From positions 1 through 53,668 of IMG/VR virus record IMGVR_UViG_3300043778_000094: DNA of 53,668 nucleotides. The stretch is one strand, 5' to 3'. Below the pieces are notes generated by a model. It ran no database searches, was not told where the DNA came from, and was given only the letters and a program-made list of their open reading frames with translations. Within the stretch, counting starts at the first letter, position 1; each line of letters opens with the position of its first letter. Position numbers and translations under genes: made by a program. The DNA is from a virus. Taxonomy: Duplodnaviria > Caudoviricetes. Below, piece by piece: positions 31,822 to 52,917 of the stretch.

Positions 31822-32529
31822 CTAACGCGGATGCGTCTGAAAGTAATTCTGCACCCATCCGTTCAATTCGGGTTGCGTAAGCGGAGGCTTGCCGTAGCGC
31901 AAACACACTTGATCCACGTTATCGTGATAGCGGTCCAATTCCCTTTGAATTTTAGTCGGCGACAGAAACGGCAATCGTTTGAATTTCAGGTAAACAGCGA
32001 ATGCCCGGCGGAAGCGATAGAACCACGCCGGCGGCGGCTTTGCTGGTGCGGGCCTCGGGGCCTGCATCACAATCGCCGGTACCGACATTTTTTCCGAAAT
32101 CGGCCGCAGCGGCGGGACCGGGATGATGGTTTTCGTTGGCGGCGGCAGGTCGCGCAGTGCTGGCGCCGCCTCGCAGGCGAGGCAAGCGACCGAATGATGT
32201 GCCGCCCAGGTTGCTTTGATGACCGGACCGCCGCAATCGCCGCACACTTGGTCGGCGACATAGCGCAAACGAGCGTGGTCGCTCCATTTACGTTTGCAAG
32301 GGTCCCCGTCGCTCTCGATGCCGATCGTCCCCACAGTGCTGAGAAAATATTCCCAGCGCGCGACACTGTTGACCGGCATTTCGGTGCGCGTGCGGCTGCG
32401 CCCCGGGTGCATCACATAACGCATCGCGTAATGCAGCGGGATTTGCTGCTCGACCGCTTCGAACAACTCGCCCAGTTTGTGCCATTGGCGATCGCGCAAT
32501 CGGGCGAAGACTTCGGCTTGCCACCCCAT
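31822..32529 (-). CDS. Hypothetical protein with CxxC/CxxC zinc ribbon
   Basis: CGDC..CLAC; TAATG-coupled to the upstream gene. Confidence 0.65.
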   Translation of the reverse strand: MGWQAEVFARLRDRQWHKLGELFEAVEQQIPLHYAMRYVMHPGRSRTRTEMPVNSVARWEYFLSTVGTIGIESDGDPCKRKWSDHARLRYVADQVCGDCGGPVIKATWAAHHSVACLACEAAPALRDLPPPTKTIIPVPPLRPISEKMSVPAIVMQAPRPAPAKPPPAWFYRFRRAFAVYLKFKRLPFLSPTKIQRELDRYHDNVDQVCLRYGKPPLTQPELNGWVQNYFQTHPR

Positions 32530-33548
32530 TAGACGTGCAATTCCACGCCGCCGACGCCGCGGCGCAGACTCGGCGGCGTTTCCAGACGTTTGATGCGGTC
32601 GAGCTCGGCGATAACCCGTTTCAGCAGGTCAATGGTGCCGTCGCATAAGACGCGCGCCAGATCCTGCCGCGAATAGGCCGACAGATACAATTGTTCAATG
32701 CCCTTGTCGGCCAGGTTATTGAGAGTGCGAATTGTCGCGAAGAATTTGGTCGCTGGCGCCGGTGAGATGCGACCGTGTTTGGCTTGGACCTGCATCTTGC
32801 GCGTCGCCGCGGTTTGCGTCGCCCGCTCTACCGTCGCCAAACCAGAGGCTTCATCGCGGGTTTTCTTGACCTCTTTGCAAAGCTCATCGACTTCGGCGGT
32901 TGAAGCACCAGCCAAGACGGCGAATTGTGCTGCTTTGCCAAACACAACATCGTTTTGAATGCCCTGCAATGCCAAGACGCTCGACCGCGACAGCTTCGCT
33001 TTGGCAAAATCAAAACCAAAGCGCCGCCCGCGTATCATGGCTTGCTGTTCCGTCCAGCCGGTTTTGACCTGTCCTTCCTTCAGGTTCCATTCTTTCGCAA
33101 GTTGCTTCAGCGAGCGATCAGGATAGGTCTCATGCAACTGTAAGACCTGCAGAACGCGATCGCGGATCGACACCCCCTGGCCTTCAATTGTGTTCAGACG
33201 GCGGATCAACGATTCCCGGCGATAAACATCACCCTCGGTTACGACATAAGCATCGCAATCCGTGCGATTGGCTAATTTCGCCGCCTCGGTGCGGTGCACC
33301 CCAGTCGCGATCAGATATTGCGCGGGGGGGATGCCGTCATGGGTCAACAGCACAATGGCCGGGAATTCGGTCCCTTCCTCCATTGCCAGCGCGTAACTGA
33401 TCGCTCGATCTTCATCGACGCGGCGCAACAATCGTGCCGGGTTTTCATAGGACGCCTTGAGATCGATTTCCGAGAAATCAACGTGCGGGTGATATTCGTA
33501 GCGGTAGCCGCCCTGCTCGAGGAATTGTTCCGTCTTTTGATCTTTCAT
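32529..33548 (-). CDS. ParB/Srx-like N-terminal domain protein
   Basis: YALAM..G.EFPAIVL..LIATGVHRTEAA, followed by an HTH-like SLKQLAKEW segment. Confidence 0.65.
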   Translation of the reverse strand: MKDQKTEQFLEQGGYRYEYHPHVDFSEIDLKASYENPARLLRRVDEDRAISYALAMEEGTEFPAIVLLTHDGIPPAQYLIATGVHRTEAAKLANRTDCDAYVVTEGDVYRRESLIRRLNTIEGQGVSIRDRVLQVLQLHETYPDRSLKQLAKEWNLKEGQVKTGWTEQQAMIRGRRFGFDFAKAKLSRSSVLALQGIQNDVVFGKAAQFAVLAGASTAEVDELCKEVKKTRDEASGLATVERATQTAATRKMQVQAKHGRISPAPATKFFATIRTLNNLADKGIEQLYLSAYSRQDLARVLCDGTIDLLKRVIAELDRIKRLETPPSLRRGVGGVELHV

Positions 33549-46807: not shown

Positions 46808-47470
46808 CTAGCTCTTTTGTTTCAATTCGTAGAGCCAGCCGCCGGGTTGCCAATCGGCATCGTCTGGGTCGGGGCCGACTGGGATTTCTTGTCGCGTGCG
46901 AGTGTCGTGATCCCAACGCGTTCTGACCATTTTGACCGGTTTCTTGGAACGCTCTTGCGCCAGCTTCGTGACGCATTGCTTGACCGTGCGCCCGCGCGCG
47001 TCGTCAGCGTCGCAATAGATCGAAAGATAGCCGCTTTCGCTCAGAAACGGCCGATCCCAATCAAACGCCGTCAATTCGAAATGGAAGTCGCCGTCGGCGT
47101 GAACCACGACTCGGCATTTCTTGACCGTGATCAGAAACGTGCCGCTCTGACCCCAAAGCGGCACTTGACCGGGTGCAGTCGCGAGCAATTTTGTCAACCG
47201 GGCATGGCCGGTCAACTCTTCGTCATCGTCATCGTCTGGCATGGCGTCGCCGACGGCATAGAGGCGATCGGCGAATTCGCTGGCCTGGGCTTCGTCGCCG
47301 CCGCGGATCGCAGCGTCATACTGCTTGAGCCAGGCGCGGCCTTGTTCGAGCCGTTCGGTGGGGTCGCCGGCGAGCTCACGGTGGATGCGATAACGCCGTT
47401 CGATAGGACTCGACGGCGGCAGAAAATCAAACCCCGGCTGAAACGCCTGGGCGGTTGCTGTTCGACGCAT
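46808..47470 (-). CDS. KlcB-like protein
   Basis: APGQVPLWGQSGTFLI..FHFE..DWDRPFLSESGY recalls IncP KlcB; ATG follows the conserved SD box. Confidence 0.55.
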   Translation of the reverse strand: MRRTATAQAFQPGFDFLPPSSPIERRYRIHRELAGDPTERLEQGRAWLKQYDAAIRGGDEAQASEFADRLYAVGDAMPDDDDDEELTGHARLTKLLATAPGQVPLWGQSGTFLITVKKCRVVVHADGDFHFELTAFDWDRPFLSESGYLSIYCDADDARGRTVKQCVTKLAQERSKKPVKMVRTRWDHDTRTRQEIPVGPDPDDADWQPGGWLYELKQKS

Positions 47471-47504
47471 GTATCGTCTCCATTGCAGATCGGGAAAGAG
47501 GCTT

Positions 47505-47565
47505 CCCGTGACGCGCGGGCGAGCCGCGCGTTTCGGCCCGGTGCTACCGGGCCTCGTCAGACGGG
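47505..47565 (-). ncRNA. Hammerhead ribozyme HH1 (type I)
   Basis: cccgu CUGACGA ggcccggu-agc-accgggcc GAAA cgcgcgg-cucgc-ccgcgcg UC/acggg; GUC cut after 47510. Confidence 0.95.
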
Positions 47566-48372
47566 GTATTCGCGCACCCGCAAATCGCGGGGCCATTCTT
47601 CTGGGTCGGCGCCAGCATAATGCACGGTCGACAACGACCGATCATCGTCACGGGCGATCGACCCCAATTGCTTCATAAACACCGGCACGGCGGCCGCCTG
47701 ACAGCGCCGGATCATAAGTCGGGCCCAGGCGATATCAAACGATCGCGCTCGCTGCCGCGGTCGCCCGCTTTCGCCGCCGATCACTACCCAGCCCGTCCCC
47801 GTCGGGTCGCGATCGATCATCTCGAGCTGCGGCTCGACCGAGATCCACGGGACTTCGGTCGGCAGCCGGCTAAGCCACGGCACGCGTTCGTCCCAACGGC
47901 GCTGATCCTCGGCCGAGACGCCGAGCCAGATGCCGGGGTGCGCCGTCGTCGCGCCGATCTGCGCCAACAACCCAGCGAGATTGTCGGGTCGCTTGGTCAA
48001 CACCTGGAAGACATGCCCACGGGCGCGCTGCGCCGCCGTCATCGCCTCCCAGATGCGGGCAAACCATTCGCGCGGCATGTCGTCGTGGGCCAGGTCGGAC
48101 ATGCTGTTGACGAAGATCATGCGCGGTCGCGCCCAGCGCATGGGTTGCGTCAGCGCCGCTTCCCAGAAGCGCAATTCCCCGGTCCACACCGGGCCTCCCT
48201 TGGTGTTGCGCGTCAAACCGCGATATTTGGCGGACGCCGGCCCCCCAAAGCCGGCGATCCGTGCAGCTTCGCGCATCGCGTAACAATGCGTACACCCGGG
48301 CGAAATCACCGTGCATCCGACTGTCGGGTTCCACGTCGACTCGGTCCAGGCAATCGCGGTGTCGCGTGCCAT
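47557..48372 (-). CDS. Phage Gp37/Gp68 (DUF5131) family protein
   Basis: IAWTESTWNPTVGCTVISPGCTHCYA, IFVNSMSDL, FQVLTKRP, WVVIGGESG and VPVFMKQLG motifs. Confidence 0.93.
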   Translation of the reverse strand: MARDTAIAWTESTWNPTVGCTVISPGCTHCYAMREAARIAGFGGPASAKYRGLTRNTKGGPVWTGELRFWEAALTQPMRWARPRMIFVNSMSDLAHDDMPREWFARIWEAMTAAQRARGHVFQVLTKRPDNLAGLLAQIGATTAHPGIWLGVSAEDQRRWDERVPWLSRLPTEVPWISVEPQLEMIDRDPTGTGWVVIGGESGRPRQRARSFDIAWARLMIRRCQAAAVPVFMKQLGSIARDDDRSLSTVHYAGADPEEWPRDLRVREYPV

Positions 48373-48388
48373 GTGTTTCTCCCCCCCG

Positions 48389-48417
48389 TTGACAAATTTG
48401 CTAAAAACCCCCAATAT
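48389..48417 (+). promoter_or_regulatory. Putative promoter of the antisense sRNA
   Basis: TTGACA, N17, CAATAT; predicted start site ~48424-48425. Confidence 0.55.
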
Positions 48418-48424
48418 CCGCGCC

Positions 48425-48487
48425 GAAGACGTGAGTCTTCATTGCAGAACTGGGGGGCCGTCCTGATTGGGGCGGCCCCCACTTTTT
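48425..48487 (+). ncRNA. Putative trans-acting sRNA antisense to the shared SD box
   Basis: GAAGAC-GUGA-GUCUUC hairpin, single-stranded AUUGCAGAACU, then an 11-bp terminator stem (48453-48480) and T5. Confidence 0.65.
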
Positions 48488-49781
48488 ACGCTGCCTCGTC
48501 AGAAGCGGTCTCGGGAAAGACTTCGCTGACTGACTTATCGCCCTCGCCGGGAACGACTTTATCCGGCGACAACACGGTTTCGACCTGGCGCCAATCGAGG
48601 CAGCGCGTGGCCGCCACTTCCGGCGTCAAACCGCCTTCCCACCAGCTGTCGAGCGGCACGCCGTCGGCGAGTTGGTGGATCGTCAAGCCGGCATTGTCAC
48701 GCGACAACACGGCGTTGACATCGGCGAAGAATTTTGCCCTCGCCTTTTTCGCGGGCGCGCCCTTGAGCTTGGCTCGCTGGGCGACGCGCGTGGTGTCGCC
48801 GTCGTCTGTCGTTTCGGCCTCGTCCTCATCAAGCAATTGAGGCGATGGTGCCGGCGCAGGTAACGCGGTCTGAGGCTGCGTACGGGTTATCAACGTGTTG
48901 ATCCGCTGATCGTAATCCTCGATCTTTTTCTGCAGCAGCCGATTGTTCGGCATTTTTTCGAGCCGCGCCATGGTGCGCGTGCGATTGGCCCGCAAAGCGC
49001 CAATTGTCCCGGTGATTGCCGGGTTCAATATGCGCGCTTGCTGCGGCGCCAACGCCTGATCTCTGAGCCCCATCACGGGCATCAACGCCAACACCGCCCC
49101 CGGGCATCCGGGGAACATAATCAACGTTGGCTTGTCATCGCCCGCGCCGAAGACCTGCACGGTCGGCGACTCGAGCAATTTCGCGAGATCAGCGACACCC
49201 TTGAGATAGGCCGCTTGATAGCCGGTACTTTCGAGGTCCAGTGTTTCGCGCGACGACAGATTGATGCTGGCGAACATGCCGTCGTAAGCCGGAAAGTCGC
49301 CTTCGACTGGGAACAGACGAAAGGTGACATTGTCGTGAGGATCCGACAACAACAGGCGCGGCGCGCCAGTCCCATACGAAATCACGGCGGAGTCGCCGCC
49401 GAGCTTTTCGATCATCATCAACTGTTCTCTGAACAGAGCGAGCGGCACCGTTATTCCCTTTCCGAGCCAACCGGGCAGCGTTGCTGACCCGCTTGGGATC
49501 GAATAGGCGAATAAGCGATGACCGTCGGTCGCGCTGACACGGACTTCGCCTTCGCGCGTGGCGATGTTGACGCCCTGGAGATTTTCCGGGACGTCTTTCT
49601 TGTCGCCGTTGACATCGGTGGTTTTGGCACCGGTGCAGCTGATCGCTGCCTTGAGCGCGAGCACGGGGATGGCGATCGGCTCAAGCGCCGCCACCGACTC
49701 CACGACCGCCTCCTCGACAACGTTCTCGGCAGCGCCGTTCGACGGCGCCACTTCGCGCGAAGTGCTTTTCTTGGTTCGCAT
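48486..49781 (-). CDS. Beta sliding clamp (DnaN)-like protein with terminal extensions
   Basis: LQGV..ATDGHRL, GITVP, EGDFPAY, GYQAAYL and LALMPV resemble clamp domains 2-3. Confidence 0.75.
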   Translation of the reverse strand: MRTKKSTSREVAPSNGAAENVVEEAVVESVAALEPIAIPVLALKAAISCTGAKTTDVNGDKKDVPENLQGVNIATREGEVRVSATDGHRLFAYSIPSGSATLPGWLGKGITVPLALFREQLMMIEKLGGDSAVISYGTGAPRLLLSDPHDNVTFRLFPVEGDFPAYDGMFASINLSSRETLDLESTGYQAAYLKGVADLAKLLESPTVQVFGAGDDKPTLIMFPGCPGAVLALMPVMGLRDQALAPQQARILNPAITGTIGALRANRTRTMARLEKMPNNRLLQKKIEDYDQRINTLITRTQPQTALPAPAPSPQLLDEDEAETTDDGDTTRVAQRAKLKGAPAKKARAKFFADVNAVLSRDNAGLTIHQLADGVPLDSWWEGGLTPEVAATRCLDWRQVETVLSPDKVVPGEGDKSVSEVFPETASDEAA

Positions 49782-49817
49782 AATGGGTCTCCATTGCAGG
49801 TATCGGGAAATTAGCTT

Positions 49818-49878
49818 CCCGTGACGCGCGGGCGAGCCGCGCGTTTCGGCCCGGTGCTACCGGGCCTCGTCAGACGGG
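49818..49878 (-). ncRNA. Hammerhead ribozyme HH2 (type I), identical to HH1
   Basis: 49814-49878 is an exact 65-bp copy of 47501-47565; GUC cut after 49823. Confidence 0.95.
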
Positions 49879-49879
49879 T

Positions 49880-50143
49880 TTAGTGATGTAGTAATTGCGC
49901 GATTTGCGTTAATTGGCCGCTGATGTCGCCGAGCCGACCGTTCATGCTGACAATCATGCCAAGAACTGCGATCGTGGCGGCGGCATTCGCGCCGACCGCC
50001 CAAATCAACATTGTCAGCTTTCCTTCGACGCCGAGCAGCCGCTTTTCATAATCGGCAAGTTCTTCTGCGGCTTTGTCGGCTTTGTCGGTCGAAGCGCCAG
50101 CGTCCAGCAACGCATCGCGTAATGCGCCGAGTTGCAACGCCAT
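49880..50143 (-). CDS. Small coiled-coil/TM protein (DUF1640-like)
   Basis: LRDALLDAGAS.DKA..AAE..then a TM segment; CAATGGAGG SD. Confidence 0.65.
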   Translation of the reverse strand: MALQLGALRDALLDAGASTDKADKAAEELADYEKRLLGVEGKLTMLIWAVGANAAATIAVLGMIVSMNGRLGDISGQLTQIAQLLHH

Positions 50144-50159
50144 GTTGCCTCCATTGTTG

Positions 50160-50375
50160 TCAGCCGAGATATAGCAACAATTCCTCGGCGCCGAACACCT
50201 GTTCGACACCGCAGCTGTCGCACGTGTAGTTGCGAGCGTCGGGTTCGCAACCGTCGGCCTCTTCGCCGCAAATCAGGCAAAAGCCGGGGTTATCGAGTTC
50301 CGTCATCTCGCGTTCGACTGCCTCCATCACGCGTTCAGCGGTGATCGAAGCGTGCCACAGCTTGCGCGCTAGCAT
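50160..50375 (-). CDS. Small zinc-ribbon protein
   Basis: GFCLICG..CEPDARNY.CDSCG..VFGAEE. Confidence 0.75.
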   Translation of the reverse strand: MLARKLWHASITAERVMEAVEREMTELDNPGFCLICGEEADGCEPDARNYTCDSCGVEQVFGAEELLLYLG

Positions 50376-50575
50376 GACCGGCACTCCGGGTAGAGTTGCA
50401 GACGGGTCGAGCGCATCGCCGGCACGCCGTGGCGGCCGAATTGACGCCGCCAGGCAGCAAGTTCCTCGTTCGATACGGCAAAGCGGATCGAAGCCTCGGC
50501 GATCGACAACAAGTCGTAATCGATCGCCAGCAACAACACCGCTTTGCGTTGCGGCGACCAACGATCAGTGGCCAT
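50369..50575 (-). CDS. SciP (DUF1153)-like CtrA-inhibitor homologue
   Basis: RWSPQRKA.LL.AI...LLSIAEA..RF.VS.EEL.AW.R....HG..AMR.TRLQ.Y follows the SciP pattern RW..RKA.VV.AV.GGLLS.EEA..RY.L..EEF..W.....HG..GLR.T..Q.Y. Confidence 0.8.
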   Translation of the reverse strand: MATDRWSPQRKAVLLLAIDYDLLSIAEASIRFAVSNEELAAWRRQFGRHGVPAMRSTRLQLYPECRSC

Positions 50576-50756
50576 TGTTCGGGACCATGACGTTGAGCGC
50601 CAACTTGACGCCGGGGCGCTTGCACTCGACTGGCACTATCCCGTGGGTCGAGGCGATCAGCTTGGTTTTGCCGGTCTTCGACGTGACGCCGCGGGCGGTC
50701 AGATCGCAGGTGATTACGAGCTTGTCGCCCGTCACCTTGATCTCGACGTTTTCCAT
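50565..50756 (-). CDS. Small beta-rich basic protein
   Basis: MENVEIKVTGDKLVITCDL..SKTGKTKLIASTHG; follows HH3 and the SD box. Confidence 0.8.
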   Translation of the reverse strand: MENVEIKVTGDKLVITCDLTARGVTSKTGKTKLIASTHGIVPVECKRPGVKLALNVMVPNNGH

Positions 50757-50792
50757 AAGGGTCTCCATTGCAGGTGGTACGGAATTGGACTT

Positions 50793-50853
50793 CCGCGACG
50801 TCCCGACTTGTGTCGGGACGTTTCGTCCCCTGTCACGGGGACTCGTCAGGCGG
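50793..50853 (-). ncRNA. Hammerhead ribozyme HH3 (type I)
   Basis: ccgc CUGACGA gucccc-gugaca-ggggac GAAA cgucccgac-acaa-gucgggacg UC/gcgg; cut after 50797. Confidence 0.95.
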
Positions 50854-50856
50854 GGA

Positions 50857-51066
50857 TTAATCCCAGGATCGGGATTTGCCGTAAGTGTCGCGGATGAGGA
50901 TTTTCGTCCCGAAGTCGCGCGAACGCGCCTCGGTGGCGAAGGCCTGAACCTCCTTCTCGTCCTCGCATTGCGCGTGGTCGAGCAGTTCGAGCCCGTCACG
51001 GCTCAACACCGTGACTTGCCATTTGACCCTGCTGCCGCGTGGCGGCACATATTGGCGACGTGCCAT
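50857..51066 (-). CDS. Hypothetical protein
   Basis: 69 aa starting MARRQYVPPRG; bounded by HH4 and HH3. Confidence 0.75.
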   Translation of the reverse strand: MARRQYVPPRGSRVKWQVTVLSRDGLELLDHAQCEDEKEVQAFATEARSRDFGTKILIRDTYGKSRSWD

Positions 51067-51100
51067 GATGGTCTCCATTGCAGAAGTGCGGATTTTTTGT

Positions 51101-51160
51101 ACCGCTACGCCCAGCTTGCGTTGGGCGTTTCGCTGGGGTCTCACCAGCTCTTCAGGCGGT
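51101..51160 (-). ncRNA. Hammerhead ribozyme HH4 (type I)
   Basis: accgc CUGAAGA gcugg-ugagacc-ccagc GAAA cgccca-acgcaagc-ugggcg UA/gcggu; GUA cut after 51106. Confidence 0.93.
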
Positions 51161-51448
51161 TTGTGCTGCCAACGCGTCCTCGAGGGCCTTCTTGGCAACT
51201 GGGTTGGTGAACGTCGCGACGCGAGCCGCGAGCCGGGTCCGATTGGCCCGACGTGCAGCCTCGTGACGATCGCACGGGACGCTCGAACGCACGCGACGCG
51301 CCGGCGCATCGGCCAGTTGCGCGTCATAGTGCGCCAGCGCCTCAACAACCGCTGCTTTCGCGACGGCGTTGGTGAAGGTTTCGCCCTTCTGGGCCAGCCG
51401 GGTACGATTTGCGCGCACGGCTGCGAAGTGCATCACTGACTTTGTCAT
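51152..51448 (-). CDS. Hypothetical protein with two RANRTRLA repeats (paralogue A)
   Basis: Internal duplication; stop codon is the UGA of the HH4 core. Confidence 0.8.
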   Translation of the reverse strand: MTKSVMHFAAVRANRTRLAQKGETFTNAVAKAAVVEALAHYDAQLADAPARRVRSSVPCDRHEAARRANRTRLAARVATFTNPVAKKALEDALAAQTA

Positions 51449-51486
51449 CGTGGACTCCATTGCAGAAAAGGGGTGCGGTCGAAAGT

Positions 51487-51542
51487 ACCGCGACCAGCCT
51501 TGTGGCTGGTTTCGCCCGGATTTCACGGGCTCATCAGGCGGT
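51487..51542 (-). ncRNA. Hammerhead ribozyme HH5 (type I)
   Basis: accgc CUGAUGA gcccg-ugaaauc-cgggc GAAA ccagcc-acaa-ggcugg UC/gcggu; cut after 51492. Confidence 0.95.
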
Positions 51543-51742
51543 TACGCGACAGTGATAACGACGTTGTCGCTGTCGCCGTTCGACCCGGTGTCGAGGTCAT
51601 AGCGACCGACACGGATCAACGCGTCGAAGATGATTTCTTCGTCGTCGTCTAACATGTTGACGGCGATTACATCGAACAGCGGGGCTGTTTCGGACGAACC
51701 ATCGGAGAAAGTCAGGCAGACGATCGTTGAACGGGTGATCAT
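51542..51742 (-). CDS. Small acidic hypothetical protein
   Basis: 66 aa starting MITRSTIV, containing LDDDEE; bounded by HH6 and HH5. Confidence 0.75.
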   Translation of the reverse strand: MITRSTIVCLTFSDGSSETAPLFDVIAVNMLDDDEEIIFDALIRVGRYDLDTGSNGDSDNVVITVA

Positions 51743-51766
51743 CGTGGGCTCCATTGCAGAGAGTTA

Positions 51767-51824
51767 CCGCTACGCCCAGCAAGCGCTGGGCGTTTCGCCC
51801 GAATTTCACGGGCTCGTCAGGCGG
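51767..51824 (-). ncRNA. Hammerhead ribozyme HH6 (type I)
   Basis: ccgc CUGACGA gcccg-ugaaauu-cgggc GAAA cgcccagc-gcuu-gcugggcg UA/gcgg; cut after 51771. Confidence 0.95.
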
Positions 51825-52086
51825 CTTGTGACAGCGCGTCTTCGATCGCCTTGCGGGCGATTTCGTTGGTGAACTTCGAAGCGCGAACTGCGAGCCGGGT
51901 GCGATTTGCCTTGACAGCTGCGAGGTGCCGATCGCACGGGGTGGGCACATTGTGCAGCGCGTCGAAAATCGCGACCGCTTCGGAAATCGCCTTGCGTGCG
52001 ACTTCGTTGGTGAACGAATTCGACTTGGCAGCCAGGCGGGTCCGGTTTGCGCGGATCGCAGCGATATGGCGGATCGTGTTGGTCAT
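51817..52086 (-). CDS. Hypothetical protein with two RANRTRLA repeats (paralogue B)
   Basis: Internal duplication; stop codon is the UGA of the HH6 core. Confidence 0.8.
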   Translation of the reverse strand: MTNTIRHIAAIRANRTRLAAKSNSFTNEVARKAISEAVAIFDALHNVPTPCDRHLAAVKANRTRLAVRASKFTNEIARKAIEDALSQAA

Positions 52087-52122
52087 CGTGGGCTCCATTG
52101 CGATAGGGTTTCGGGTTGATTT

Positions 52123-52176
52123 CCCGTGAGCGCTTGTGCGCTTTCGTCCCGGCATCACCGGGCCTCGTCAGACGGG
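52123..52176 (-). ncRNA. Hammerhead ribozyme HH7 (type I)
   Basis: cccgu CUGACGA ggcccgg-ugaug-ccgggac GAAA gcgc-acaa-gcgc UC/acggg; CUC cut after 52128; one G/A mismatch in stem II. Confidence 0.88.
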
Positions 52177-52529
52177 TTGCGATCAAGCGCGCGTCATTTC
52201 TGACGCGCGCTCGCTCGTTTCGTTTGCAAGTGGAGATCCTGCAATGAGCCGCGCTATCTGGCAGCGCGGGTGCATTCCTTCGATTTTGTCGTGTCCGAAA
52301 CCCGAAGTGGGTCGCCTGTGGGGGGCCTGCCGGGGAGCTTCAGGCGCTAGTGCGCGCTTTCGAGCTTTCCTACCCGATCCCGATCCGTCAGCCCGGGGAA
52401 TGATATGGTTGGCTGACTTTGCAATCCTTCGAAGCTGGGTCGCGCCTGGATTGCTTCGCGCGTCCCTTGGAAGTCTTGTTTCGTTTCGCGTTTCGCTTCG
52501 TCCTTCTGTCGTTTCGTCTTACACACATG

Positions 52530-52577
52530 AATATAAGCTATTCGCCGGGCTTCTCAAGAGATTTTTTCCACTTTTCC
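52530..52577 (-). promoter_or_regulatory. Putative promoter driving the ribozyme array
   Basis: TTGAGA (52557-52552), N16, TATATT (52535-52530), with A-tracts upstream (UP-element-like). Confidence 0.65.
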
Positions 52578-52917
52578 GGGCGTTTGTACTCGTTTTCGGA
52601 AGTACTTGAGAAACCAACCGCATCCGCACGTTGAAACACGCCGCAAGCGGAGTGCGTCATCCTGTCGCAGTCCGCTTGTTGCGTGCATCTTGCATGCGAG
52701 GTCGCGCGATGGGGGGTCGCAAAGTCGCGTCAGATCGCGCTGGGCGCGTCGCTGGCGCGCGAAAGCGCTTCGCACGTAGGGCAGCTTAGGGCGCGTCATC
52801 ACGTGCCCCAGGACGCGTCCCTGTCGATTTGCGTCGTCGCGCGAGATCGCGACGTGGTTCTCGCGTGTTGGTAGAAAACGGTTTACGGACGACCGTTTTT
52901 GCGGCTAAGCTTCGCGC

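Follow-up and report, generated by a model that had tools for sequence, protein, structure and literature searches.

The window, meaning the whole stretch of DNA analysed (53,668 nt), is a complete phage genome of 53.7 kb. The source of the phage is given as soil. On the minus strand, seven canonical type-I hammerhead ribozymes (HHa to HHg, 47510-52176) separate early genes (Table 1). A window scan for CUGANGA...GAAA cores found these seven on the minus strand and none on the plus strand. All seven candidates passed a type-I hammerhead descriptor, with 4-5 bp in stem I, 6-8 bp in stem II and 5-10 bp in stem III, and the core nucleotides and three helices are complete in every copy. The Rfam model RF00163 reported HHe only, with 28.4 bits, which is below the gathering score of 34. 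Transcription from the candidate promoter at 52530..52557, should it occur, would give a primary leader of ~395 nt that HHa cuts away.

Table 1. Hammerheads, predicted product leaders and candidate promoter of the early region
Feature	Position	Strand	Core	Predicted cleavage between	Remarks
Sigma-70-like promoter match TTGAGA-16-TATATT	52530..52557	-			Consensus match only, 10/12
HHa, type-I hammerhead	52128..52176	-	52171	52128/27	First element of early operon; stem I 5' strand to cleavage site UC/A
HHa leader, 41 nt	52084..52127	-			4-bp hairpin 52112-52126; CGCAAUGGAG 52093-52102; AUG 52084-52086, gene A (89 aa)
HHb	51771..51825	-	51820	51771/70	Gene A stop is core UGA 51817-51819
HHb leader, 28 nt	51740..51770	-			No hairpin before motif; UGCAAUGGAG 51749-51758; AUG 51740-51742, gene B (66 aa)
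HHc	51492..51542	-	51537	51492/91	Gene B stop TAA 51542-51544 shares first base of stem I 5' strand
HHc leader, 43 nt	51446..51491	-			Hairpin GCGGU/ACCGC 51475-51491; motif 51455-51464; AUG of gene C (98 aa)
HHd	51106..51160	-	51155	51106/05	Gene C stop is core UGA 51152-51154
HHd leader, 39 nt	51064..51105	-			Hairpin GCGG/CCGC 51088-51105; motif 51073-51082; AUG of gene D (69 aa)
HHe	50797..50853	-	50849	50797/96	Gene D stop TAA 50857-50859, 3 nt 5' of stem I
HHe leader, 40 nt	50754..50796	-			Hairpin GCGGAA/UUCCGU 50779-50796; motif 50763-50772; AUG of gene E (63 aa)
HHf	49823..49878	-	49873	49823/22	TAA immediately 5' of stem I
HHf leader, 41 nt	49779..49822	-			Hairpin CGGGAA/UUCCCG 49804-49821; motif 49789-49798; then AUG of clamp-like gene F (431 aa)
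HHg	47510..47565	-	47560	47510/09	Stop of DUF5131 gene (47557-48372) is core UGA 47557-47559
HHg leader, 39 nt	47468..47509	-			7-bp hairpin 47491-47508; motif 47478-47487; AUG of gene H (220 aa)

Cleavage at the predicted sites would leave leaders of 41, 28, 43, 39, 40, 41 and 39 nt from HHa to HHg. The initial annotation had listed the same lengths in the opposite direction (39, 41, 40, 39, 43, 28 and 41 nt, HHg to HHa), and it was also correct that every leader terminates in (C/U)GCAAUGGAG, followed after 6-7 nt by AUG. UGCAAUGGAG is found in six of the seven leaders and CGCAAUGGAG in HHa; the spacer from GGAG to AUG is 6 nt in five leaders and 7 nt in two. In the window, CAATGGAG occurs nine times (1.64±1.22 expected; 0/100 shuffles reached nine). 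The CUGCAAUGGAG motif is lineage-specific: CUGCAA...GGAG was limited to three lineages, namely the window family (16/16, as GCAAU(U)GGAG), the divergent relative L016/L025 with orthologues at 35-64% protein identity (9/9), and L114, which holds all three positives among the 138 other hammerheads. Genes A and C are paralogues with two ANRTRL repeats each and zero matches to known families; gene F has one ANRTRT. The proteins of A and C, the first and third genes of the operon, are arginine-rich.

It had been proposed in the initial annotation that the stem I 3' strand has a second complement just downstream in all seven leaders, and that the new 5' end refolds into a terminal hairpin. Each of the complements listed there exists. 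Six of the seven minimum-energy product folds open with a hairpin at nt 1 or 2 (−5.2 to −8.6 kcal/mol; formation probability 0.73-1.00 by nearest-neighbour folding), and this predicted hairpin re-uses the stem I 3' strand. Measured against 500 dinucleotide shuffles, five hairpins are clear (HHc, d, e, f and g, each with p 0.000-0.020) and the 4-bp hairpin of HHa is marginal, being within chance (p 0.21). The seventh leader, HHb, is not above chance, with no predicted hairpin in the zone ahead of the motif; its gcgg/cugc pairing uses the conserved CUGC and includes a G-U pair. Taken together, and in relatives too, the hairpins exceed chance by far.

Scans that were anchored on stem I and the core and left the leader unspecified yielded 163 distinct hammerheads from 117 viral loci. 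Leader length across this family had a median of 39 nt (interquartile range 32-45). Hairpins of 4 bp or more at the 5' terminus were present in 109/163 (67%), compared with 28±3% for shuffled tails and 51±2% for tails swapped among hammerheads; 67% was reached in 0/200 runs either way. Of the 118 hammerheads whose product begins with GCGG (the GCGG class), 75 had CCGC between product nt 8 and 30, as against 18 at nt 41-63 and 32 in an upstream window. The same-strand 6-kb neighbourhood predicts 21.8 (z=13), and with one hammerhead per locus the count was 53/90 versus 15.7 expected (z=10.7), although these z-scores overstate independence because the 163 sequences share kinship of unknown degree. 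Within the first 100 nt, the majority of CCGC starts (74) fell at product nt 6-20, with 1-10 per 5-nt bin past nt 20. The complementary word switched with the stem I class: the ACGGG class had CCCG in 11/14 and CCGC in 0/14, the ACGGU class had ACCG in 6/9 and CCGC in 0/9, and the two pairings never occurred crosswise (Fisher p=8e-5, for sequences that are not phylogenetically independent).

Hairpin and motif were present in 9/9 descriptor-found hammerheads of L016/L025, with differing loops and arms. These findings support positional conservation of the second complement in this phage, in L016/L025 and in ~60% of unrelated phage type-I hammerheads whose stem I is the same. That 43/118 GCGG-class hammerheads are without CCGC shows that the hairpin is not a requirement. 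It was no more frequent where a gene start could be detected within 70 nt (81/121 versus 28/42; odds ratio 1.0). A fifth pair, added to the 4 bp matching stem I, occurred in 23/57 cases versus 22.4 expected, giving neither stem extension nor covariation. For a purely protective hairpin, lengthening would be expected, and the unextended stem counts against such a role.

The family survey also covered the surroundings of the complement. A Watson-Crick complement of loop II of at least 4 nt lies at product nt 5-18 in 85/163 hammerheads, compared with 24±3% for permuted partners. In three of the seven window copies this pseudoknot partner is inside the hairpin loop, so the 'standard leader' is partly ribozyme; in HHf, the hairpin loop GCUA is complementary to UAGC of loop II. 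In 47/157 hammerheads the core UGA is the stop of the upstream ORF, and in 53/157 that ORF ends 4-16 nt before C3; the six internal sites of the window divide three and three between these positions. The pseudoknot strand in the loop, the stop codon abutting or inside the ribozyme and the retention of the ribozyme body on the upstream RNA were not part of the initial annotation.

Folding of precursor and product placed the hairpin in the product and a competition in the precursor, as the initial annotation had anticipated. In six of seven precursors the alternative fold was predicted to be stabler than the hammerhead fold by 0.5-5.2 kcal/mol, and in five of seven the stem I 3' strand paired downstream with a probability of at least 0.88, in a model that leaves out the pseudoknot, tertiary contacts and co-transcriptional order. 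Taken literally, a competitor that wins in the precursor would inactivate the ribozymes. The predicted exposure of SD and AUG was unchanged by cleavage (product 0.21-0.63, precursor 0.24-0.64).

We consider it the best explanation, and somewhat better than an even chance, that active hammerheads cut the early RNA and that a 5' hairpin refolds at each junction. Seven active type-I hammerheads would cut the early polycistronic RNA into mRNAs of one or few genes. Each junction module would begin with the upstream stop, which lies within or against the ribozyme, and continue with the hammerhead and the 3' strand of stem I. A spacer would separate this strand from a further copy of the stem I 5' strand, after which come (C/U)GCAAUGGAG, 6-7 nt and AUG; the spacer may often form a pseudoknot with loop II. 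Until the RNA is cut, the 4-5 nt past the cut site would pair upstream as stem I. After cleavage, the two RNAs would be joined solely by stem I and the short pseudoknot, and the stem I 3' nucleotides could then swap to the nearby downstream complement, forming a hairpin flush with the 5'-hydroxyl terminus just created. This would make the cut effectively irreversible, because the product would be released and neither re-ligated nor re-bound. The downstream mRNA would gain a base-paired 5' end in place of a single-stranded tail, and the upstream mRNA would keep the two GC-rich hairpins of the ribozyme as a structured 3' end. A flush 5' hairpin has to take over the stem I strand, and this would explain its competition with the ribozyme. 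Two things presumably settle the contest: the order of transcription, in which the whole hammerhead is made ahead of its competitor, and the pseudoknot. From anatomy and predicted folds we infer that cleavage and refolding may take place in vivo and affect mRNA stability and expression. The observation of the initial annotation is confirmed and its interpretation partly supported: the conserved second complement, the predicted product hairpin with its competition against stem I and the RiboJ-like order of elements are borne out. Product release, a block of re-ligation, mRNA protection and tuning of cleavage would be putative consequences.

The complement might instead act mainly before cleavage, competing from within the RNA to slow the ribozyme or gate it, with the product hairpin as a side effect. 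In that case cutting would be governed by temperature, Mg2+ or a factor, or by translation of the upstream gene: with its stop codon in or next to the ribozyme 5' strand, a terminating ribosome would mask this strand while the 3' strand sat in the hairpin. The precursor folds described above agree with this proposal, as does a stop at the core UGA or at most 16 nt from it in 100/157 hammerheads. A hairpin held at 4 bp, equal to stem I and unextended, fits a balanced switch, and Perreault et al. 2011 suggest that regulation of some phage hammerheads is possible (PMC3088659). However, the whole ribozyme is transcribed before the competitor, so that sequential folding favours cutting first. Moreover, the hairpins of HHe, f and g (6-7 bp) are stronger than their own stem I, which would be odd for tuning, genome compaction alone gives tight stops, and the reading frame by itself predicts that about one-third of ORFs would end at the core UGA. 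No ligand- or protein-binding feature is visible. We regard a mainly pre-cleavage role as unlikely.

It is quite improbable that the complement is functionless, reflecting GC-rich composition or junction modules copied within or between related phages, with leaders that record recent duplication or gene conversion. Copying would fit the identity of HHf and HHg (96% over 77 nt) and of HHb and HHd (82% over 66 nt), the paralogy of genes A and C, the confinement of CUGCAA...GGAG to three lineages and the lack of covariation at the fifth pair. Yet the excess remains outside the window family and L016/L025 (59/100; one per locus 48/84 versus 14.4 expected) and is found in all three GC strata (7/21, 22/31 and 46/66, versus 2, 3 and 13 at nt 41-63), and the loops of the 75 GCGG-class hairpins comprise 57 distinct sequences, 4-22 nt long. 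The change of complement word with stem I class also argues against copying, and the window copies retain hairpin and RBS motif despite wholly different stems II and III.

That the modules are protein recognition sites (the ANRTRL-repeat proteins being candidates) or homologous 'linkers' for cassette shuffling, with the hairpin as part of the signal, is very improbable. In favour of this reading, the invariant 10-11-nt CUGCAAUGGAG is far better conserved than an SD requires, 9/9 CAATGGAG sites lie on the minus strand with eight of them within the early region 47478-52100, near-identical modules recur beside different genes, and the repeats occur in A, the operon's first gene, and in C and F. 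Against it, freely varying hairpin loops and stems speak against sequence-specific recognition of the hairpin, the motif behaves as an RBS variant since it also marks one gene start (50149-50156) that lacks a hammerhead, and RNA binding by these proteins has no supporting link.

Hammerheads that cut the early RNA and leave a refolding 5' hairpin, the reading we prefer, resemble several known systems. Stem-loops of the ompA type at the 5' terminus stabilise bacterial mRNAs, and synthetic 5' hairpins on bacterial mRNAs were reportedly the subject of Carrier and Keasling 1997 (cited in PMC6206723). Like ompA-type stem-loops, the phage hairpin has no single-stranded 5' tail, its first pair being at nt 1 or 2; unlike those leaders, the predicted phage 5' end is a ribozyme-made 5'-hydroxyl rather than a triphosphate, and the stems are short (4-7 bp). 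In viroid and satellite RNAs, hammerhead switches serve rolling-circle replication and the ligation of circular RNAs, and Song et al. 1999 (cited in PMC6765202) are said to have described an alternative fold that switches the satRPV hammerhead off. There, too, the same nucleotides belong to the active hammerhead or to a competing structure, but the phage elements lie in the mRNA context of a DNA phage, with the competitor just 5' of the RBS.

The initial annotation had likened the layout to RiboJ, for which Lou et al. 2012 is reportedly the original paper. RiboJ is an engineered insulator made of an sTRSV-derived hammerhead and a 23-nt hairpin (PMC6206723, PMC7536230), and the terminal hairpin has been proposed to increase mRNA stability (PMC6206723). 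As far as RiboJ is described in these two sources, the order of ribozyme, hairpin and RBS is alike: a hammerhead lies between upstream RNA and RBS, cleavage would strip variable upstream sequence, and a short standard 5' UTR bearing a hairpin would be left. By the same descriptions, RiboJ carries its hairpin as an independent addition, without competition with the ribozyme, and the portion left uncleaved, hairpin included, remains with the downstream RNA, whereas the phage hairpin would re-pair stem I nucleotides and the catalytic body would leave with the upstream RNA. Because the phage ribozyme is type I, its body stays upstream and the hairpin must steal the stem I strand, of which merely 4-7 nt go downstream, unlike in RiboJ. 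The natural modules also sit between operon genes and not just after a promoter.

Clusters of prophage hammerheads have already been published. Perreault et al. 2011 (PMC3088659) described same-orientation clusters flanking single genes or short blocks of phage origin, with a canonical core and, in ~40%, a stem I-stem II pseudoknot. Three tandem arrangements cleaved in vitro, the A. tumefaciens triple arrangement also in E. coli, and the proposed role was to convert long phage transcripts into gene-length mRNAs (PMC3088659). The present cluster shares the single orientation, the position between genes, the canonical core, a candidate pseudoknot and the proposed processing role, whereas a downstream complement, a product 5' hairpin, a fixed leader and RBS, and stops in the core are not mentioned in the available text of that paper. 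In the haloviruses HF1 and HF2, HHphage lies 13 nt 5' of the helicase start codon, and a mapped transcript 5' end is at most 3 nt from its cleavage site (PMC3088659). HHphage likewise stands immediately ahead of an early gene, but it occurs singly, has a variant core and leaves a far shorter leader, and the available text describes no hairpin for it. We found no description of the competing hairpin in the literature; it may be visible, uncommented, in the alignments and Figures S1-S2 of PMC3088659. The hairpin arrangement is not peculiar to the window phage and is seen in many unrelated phages.

A scan of the window for CUGANGA...GAAA returned seven cores, all on the minus strand, which are named HHa to HHg in transcription order. 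The conserved type-I core was present in each of them: C3 U4 G5 A6 N7 G8 A9, G12 A13 A14, an A15.1-U16.1 pair and H17 (not G) before the cut. Five cores read CUGACGA, one CUGAUGA and one CUGAAGA, all with GAAA and with GUC, CUC or GUA as the cleavage triplet. The topology is also that of type I in all seven, with an open stem I of 4-5 bp and with stems II (6-8 bp) and III (5-10 bp) both closed by loops; the stem III hairpin ends in U-H in every copy. From these sequence features we infer self-cleavage at the predicted sites in the window.

Features of the window discussed in the text (positions on the record; genes A to H are minus-strand ORFs of the early block)
Feature	Position	Strand	Remarks
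Sigma-70-like promoter match	52557-52530	minus	consensus match alone
Element GGAGAUCCUGCAAUG	52229-52246	plus	includes CTGCAATG at 52239-52246
Inverted repeat	52187-52210	minus	perfect, 10 bp; 11 nt 5' of HHa
HHa core	52171	minus	leader 41 nt; hairpin from nt 2
Protein A	51817-52086	minus	
HHb core	51820	minus	leader 28 nt
Core UGA of HHb	51817-51819	minus	upstream stop codon
Module repeat with HHb	51765-51830	minus	
HHc core	51537	minus	leader 43 nt; hairpin from nt 1
HHd core	51155	minus	leader 39 nt; hairpin from nt 1
Core UGA of HHd	51152-51154	minus	upstream stop codon
Protein C	51152-51448	minus	
Module repeat with HHd	51100-51165	minus	
HHe core	50849	minus	leader 40 nt; hairpin from nt 1
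DUF1153 protein	50369-50575	minus	
Leader motif of a gene without a ribozyme	50149-50156		
HHf core	49873	minus	leader 41 nt; hairpin from nt 2
Module repeat with HHf	49802-49878	minus	
Protein F	48486-49781	minus	431 aa; weak similarity to sliding-clamp and RusA-like PHROGs
F-G intergenic region	48437-48480		
GC-rich hairpin between F and G	48453-48480		12 bp
CTGCAATG between F and G	48440-48447	minus	
DUF5131/Gp37-Gp68 protein	47557-48372	minus	Pfam E = 1e-63
HHg core	47560	minus	leader 39 nt; hairpin from nt 2
Core UGA of HHg	47557-47559	minus	upstream stop codon
Module repeat with HHg	47489-47565	minus	
Several small ORFs without family	early block	minus	
Ninth copy of CAATGGAG	33378-33385	minus	

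At gathering thresholds, Rfam gave no match in the whole window. The sole RF00163 report in E-value mode was HHe, matched over the full model at 28.4 bits (gathering score 34; E = 9.4e-4), and the model handled its long stems II and III as insertions. The gathering score is apparently missed because these stems are long; with the structural features all present, the shortfall is a limit of the curated model. We also examined the helices in 170 distinct listed matches to patterns that fixed stem I and the core alone and left stems II and III unconstrained. Stems II (3 bp or more) and III (4 bp or more) were both uninterrupted in 103 of them, compared with 3/170 after shuffling of the interiors. 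Pair III.3 was C-G in 75, G-C in 68, A-U in 14 and U-A in 7 of the matches listed. The type-I helices covary among relatives, and covariation is rich in stems II and III.

Predicted cleavage leaves leaders, that is, RNA between the cut and the AUG, of exactly the lengths that the initial annotation had given; six of the seven fall within 39-43 nt, HHb being shorter. Its claim of a common ribosome-binding motif was borne out as well. Every leader ends in UGCAAUGGAG (CGCAAUGGAG in HHa), a shared 10-nt motif, followed by a spacer of 6 or 7 nt and AUG. The window holds nine copies of CAATGGAG, each of them on the minus strand (1.6 expected), and the leader motif also serves a gene that has no ribozyme. 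The ninth copy of CAATGGAG is remote from the hammerhead block; it sits within a long minus-strand ORF (32529-33548) and may mark an internal or corrected start. An AUG inside CAAUGGAG was considered as the true start and ruled out: in HHf and HHg it lies 13 nt from the start AUG, in a frame other than that of the long ORF, and it is likewise out of frame in several relatives; one relative has CAAUUGGAG.

In the family, by which we mean the distinct phage type-I hammerheads collected by pattern scans, the median leader length was 39 nt (interquartile range 32-45; 134 of the 163 listed hammerheads, those with a detectable SD and start), and the median distance from hairpin to SD was about 12 nt. 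The motif CUGCAA(U)GGAG, scored as GCAAU(U)GGAG, was found in 16/16 hammerheads of the window family, in 9/9 hammerheads of a diverged relative of the window phage (one contig with the two handles L016 and L025) and in 3/138 of the others listed, all on one contig. This motif, which contains the SD, is lineage-specific.

The minimum-energy fold of the product begins with a hairpin at nt 1-2 in six of the seven copies, the 5' end pairing with a complement further downstream. The initial annotation had placed this hairpin in all seven. Five are clear (p <= 0.02 against dinucleotide shuffles), that of HHa is marginal (4 bp; p = 0.21), and HHb has no hairpin before the motif in the minimum-energy fold of its product. 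All copies except HHb therefore carry a stem-loop starting about 1-2 nt from the RNA 5' end, as expected of a 5'-terminal stabilizing structure. The hairpin uses the stem I 3' strand as its 5' arm, which makes the hammerhead and hairpin folds mutually exclusive. In nearest-neighbour folding of the uncut RNA, the alternative fold was more stable in 6/7 copies, by 0.5-5.2 kcal/mol, the exception again being HHb, and the probability of the downstream pairing was at least 0.88 in 5/7 precursors. Comparison of precursor and product, which the initial annotation had proposed, thus returned the product hairpin in six of seven copies with the competitor already predicted to win before the cut. The predicted exposure of the SD and AUG was the same before and after cleavage, which weakens the part of the original idea that concerned insulation of the ribosome-binding site.

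Scanning IMG/VR with a pattern for the whole module returned near-identical relatives and one diverged phage, L016/L025, whose orthologous proteins are 35-64% identical to those of the window. This contig carries CAAU(U)GGAG at 18 sites on a single strand. All nine of its descriptor-found hammerheads have a GCGG...CCGC hairpin and the motif, with differing loops and arms, and inspection by eye adds at least five modules (at least 14 in total). At about 5547, 6311 and 9960 of L025, CUGACGAGG(C/U)CAG forms a small 5-bp hairpin that re-uses the hammerhead core word and is followed by a U-rich run and CUGCAAUGGAG, with neither GAAA nor stems II/III; these junctions may be decayed or minimal modules.

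Two further IMG/VR patterns, chosen against circularity, were leader-free and fixed stem I and the core alone. Pooled, the pattern scans yielded at least 200 loci (1.8 Mb) with at least 202 hammerheads, of which at least 163 from at least 117 loci were distinct. A MAFFT alignment of the seven window modules was structurally inconsistent, and family statistics were taken from anchor-based scripts instead. Among the 163 hammerheads listed, 109 had a hairpin of 4 bp or more at the 5' terminus, compared with 28% for shuffled tails and 51% for tails swapped between ribozymes. The GCGG class, in which the product starts with GCGG, had CCGC at product nt 8-30 in 75 of the 118 members listed, compared with 18 at nt 41-63, 32 in an upstream control window and 21.8 expected from their own 6-kb neighbourhoods (z = 13). 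With one hammerhead per locus the listed count was 53/90 (15.7 expected), and outside the window family and L016/L025 it was 59/100. Within the first 100 nt, CCGC started mostly at product nt 6-20 (74 occurrences), with 1-10 per 5-nt bin further downstream. The excess was present in all GC strata, and the 75 hairpins had 57 different loops of 4-22 nt.

The complement also followed the stem I class. Listed products of the ACGGG class had CCCG in 11/14 cases and those of the ACGGU class had ACCG in 6/9, whereas CCGC was never found in either. It was missing in 43 of the 118 GCGG-class ribozymes listed. The stem did not extend past the four pairs that mirror stem I more often than expected (fifth pair in 23/57 vs 22.4), and the hairpin was not associated with a gene start within 70 nt (81/121 vs 28/42 of the listed matches, by a crude SD detector). 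The GCGG-loop-CCGC hairpin was also considered as stem I of a permuted (type II/III) hammerhead and rejected, as no CUGANGA core follows its 3' arm. We conclude that the repetition of the stem I 5' strand downstream is selected, and its position constrained, in many phage hammerheads of type I, with the reservation that the sequences are phylogenetically non-independent.

Beyond what the initial annotation had described, the hairpin loop often carries a second pairing partner. In 85 of the 163 hammerheads listed, 4 nt or more of loop II have a Watson-Crick complement within product nt 5-18, compared with 24% for permuted partners. Three window copies have it (HHa UGAU/AUCA, HHc GAAA/UUUC and HHf UAGC/GCUA), and the complement is 3 nt long in two of the remaining copies and 2 nt in the other two. 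The accessible text of Perreault et al. 2011 (PMC3088659) reports a stem I/stem II pseudoknot for about 40% of hammerheads, and the loop II complement would, by its predicted pairing, be this pseudoknot. Where the loop carries the pseudoknot strand, the first ~15 nt of the 'leader' would belong to the active ribozyme, so that refolding would dissolve stem I plus the pseudoknot.

The best reading of these observations, in which we place somewhat more belief than doubt, is a conformational toggle. Stem I would form first, since transcription of its partner and of the entire ribozyme precedes that of the competitor, and the RNA would cut itself. The products would then be joined by just 4-5 bp and the short pseudoknot, and local re-pairing of the 3' strand could give a hairpin that sits flush with the 5'-OH end created by the cut. 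Such a toggle would make cleavage irreversible, the released ribozyme being unable to re-bind, and the flush hairpin would leave the downstream mRNA without a single-stranded 5' tail. The upstream mRNA would retain a structured 3' end; owing to the type-I topology, the catalytic body and two GC-rich hairpins stay at the 3' end of the upstream RNA. The odd self-competition would be explained because only the stem I strand can supply the arm of a flush hairpin, and holding the hairpin to the length of stem I would limit the harm to ribozyme folding. Cleavage, refolding and every other functional step of this scheme are what we infer from the DNA.

The main rival to the toggle, which we regard as unlikely, is that the competitor acts before cleavage and gates or tunes it, possibly tied to translation termination on the overlapping stop codon. 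The core UGA doubles as the stop of the upstream gene in HHb, HHd and HHg; HHc, HHe and HHf instead have a TAA that either overlaps the 5' strand of stem I or lies at most 4 nt upstream of it. In the family, the upstream ORF ended at the core UGA in 47/157 and 4-16 nt before C3 in 53/157 of the listed matches. A terminating ribosome would cover the 5' strand of the ribozyme. About one third ending at the UGA is the frame chance for ORFs that enter the ribozyme, and the packing therefore mainly reflects extreme compaction.

It is quite improbable that the complement has no function and was merely inherited by module copying. Copying as such is suggested by the likeness of HHf and HHg (96% identity over 77 nt, with the differences in the hairpin loop) and of HHb and HHd (82% over 66 nt), which points to duplication or gene conversion of whole junction modules, but the excess of complements across the family, switching words with the stem I class, opposes this explanation. 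The arginine-rich motif A-x-x-[RK]-ANRTRLA occurs twice in each of the paralogous proteins A and C, which had no match in Pfam, PHROG or the protein atlas; protein F has a single ANRTRT. That the element serves protein recognition or as a recombination linker, for which motif conservation and the ANRTRL-repeat proteins are the sole support, is very improbable.

The window spans an entire IMG/VR virus record (53,668 bp), which has direct terminal repeats and is estimated to be 100% complete. The hammerheads sit in a minus-strand block of small early-type genes, and gene A is the first of the operon. Shortly before HHa, the inverted repeat GCGCGCGTCA-GAAA-TGACGCGCGC could be an operator, or an RNA hairpin stripped from the mRNA by HHa cleavage. 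The plus-strand element GGAGAUCCUGCAAUG could provide the start of a divergent ORF (121 aa, in frame with 52136-52609) that looks poor as coding sequence; the element's SD-plus-CUGCAAUG arrangement also precedes the clamp-like gene in L016 (about 5540). Between genes F and G, the GC-rich hairpin scores as a plus-strand terminator and is followed on the minus strand by CUGCAAUGAAG, a degenerate copy of the leader motif that lacks a hammerhead. When the 4.85-kb region was compared by BLASTN with 50,697 phage records, 39 of them matched, none over more than 5% of the query and all within the DUF5131 gene, and no close cultured relative was found among these records. The module-pattern scan of genome contigs gave 120 loci, two of them hammerhead-like by descriptor (one Anabaena contig without the hairpin design, one doubtful), and was of no help for host assignment.

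Part of the region is contained in 15 soil metatranscriptome runs, and four runs from four studies were compared (RNA runs alone, contigs at depth 2-11; HHf/HHg are a repeat). In these four, contigs at least 99% identical covered genes A, C, D, E, F and G. The ribozyme-free junction 50565-50575 was bridged in 3/4 runs. Among the pieces listed (32 of 45), none spanned any of the seven cleavage sites by 31 nt or more in both directions; one piece crossed the HHa site, with 28 nt. Contig ends clustered at 1-3 nt from core starts (50849/50852/50852, 51153/51155/51155, 51818/51819 and 49875) and at 9-23 nt inside most predicted product 5' ends, up to 93 nt in a few pieces. The missing cover at the cleavage sites is at most a weak hint and is given no weight as evidence, because the contigs are of low depth, the F-G junction (a hairpin without a ribozyme) is likewise unbridged, the comparison was confined to RNA runs, and assembled contigs cannot show RNA ends. 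One contig (run X4, depth 2.6, short side 21 nt) joins 50423 to 52042, skipping 1618 nt, and may be a chimera or a deletion variant. Contig depth was zero in all four RNA runs at 51612-51773 (gene B) and 47400-47561 (start of gene H), with their neighbours covered; contig data of this kind cannot rank expression.

Prophage hammerhead clusters flanking single genes have been proposed to cut long phage RNAs into gene-length mRNAs, with activity shown in vitro and, for the A. tumefaciens triple arrangement, in E. coli (accessible text of PMC3088659). The consulted part of a 2019 review calls the roles of bacterial self-cleaving ribozymes 'largely elusive' and states that the processing of polycistronic RNA into transcripts of differing stability or translatability needs more work (PMC6765202). 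RiboJ, as outlined in excerpts of PMC6206723 and PMC7536230, consists of an sTRSV-derived ribozyme and a 23-nt hairpin and standardizes 5' UTRs, and its leftover terminal hairpin has been proposed to stabilize mRNA. The RiboJ-like design seen by the initial annotation holds for the layout and the constant leader: the window ribozymes lie between upstream RNA and ribosome-binding site, and the predicted cut leaves a near-constant 5' UTR. It does not hold for the parts themselves. The window hairpin overlaps and competes with the ribozyme, whereas that of RiboJ is separate and downstream of it; the core and stems II/III lie 5' of the predicted cut and would leave with the upstream RNA, whereas the RiboJ structure stays downstream (PMC6206723, as excerpted). 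In the full-text literature outside subscription journals and supplementary alignments, no paper was found to describe, for bacterial or phage hammerheads, a conserved complement to stem I on the downstream side. The ribozymes and their clustering are already known; what appears new is the conserved toggle hairpin together with the architecture of the module. Taken as a whole, the observation was confirmed and its interpretation partly supported, and the finding is computationally solid and general, an addition to a known system.

A conserved competing hairpin at the new 5' end turns a vague idea of processing into specific mutational tests, for which the window (seven modules) and its relative L016/L025 (at least 14) are ready-made test sets. 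Such a hairpin also suggests why these ribozymes are of type I and why stem I is short. For synthetic biology, the module is a compact natural alternative to RiboJ that would leave only ~40 nt on the downstream gene. More tentatively, and with doubt prevailing, we propose that it may be a widespread natural 'operon-splitting' part, in which the same 4-7 nt would toggle from stem I to a flush 5' hairpin. Each cistron would be released irreversibly as a separate mRNA that starts with a hairpin and ends with a ribozyme body, and its translation would be uncoupled from the upstream gene. If true, this would answer in concrete terms the long-standing question of which function bacterial and phage hammerheads serve, and it would provide a natural precedent, in another topology, for engineered ribozyme insulators.
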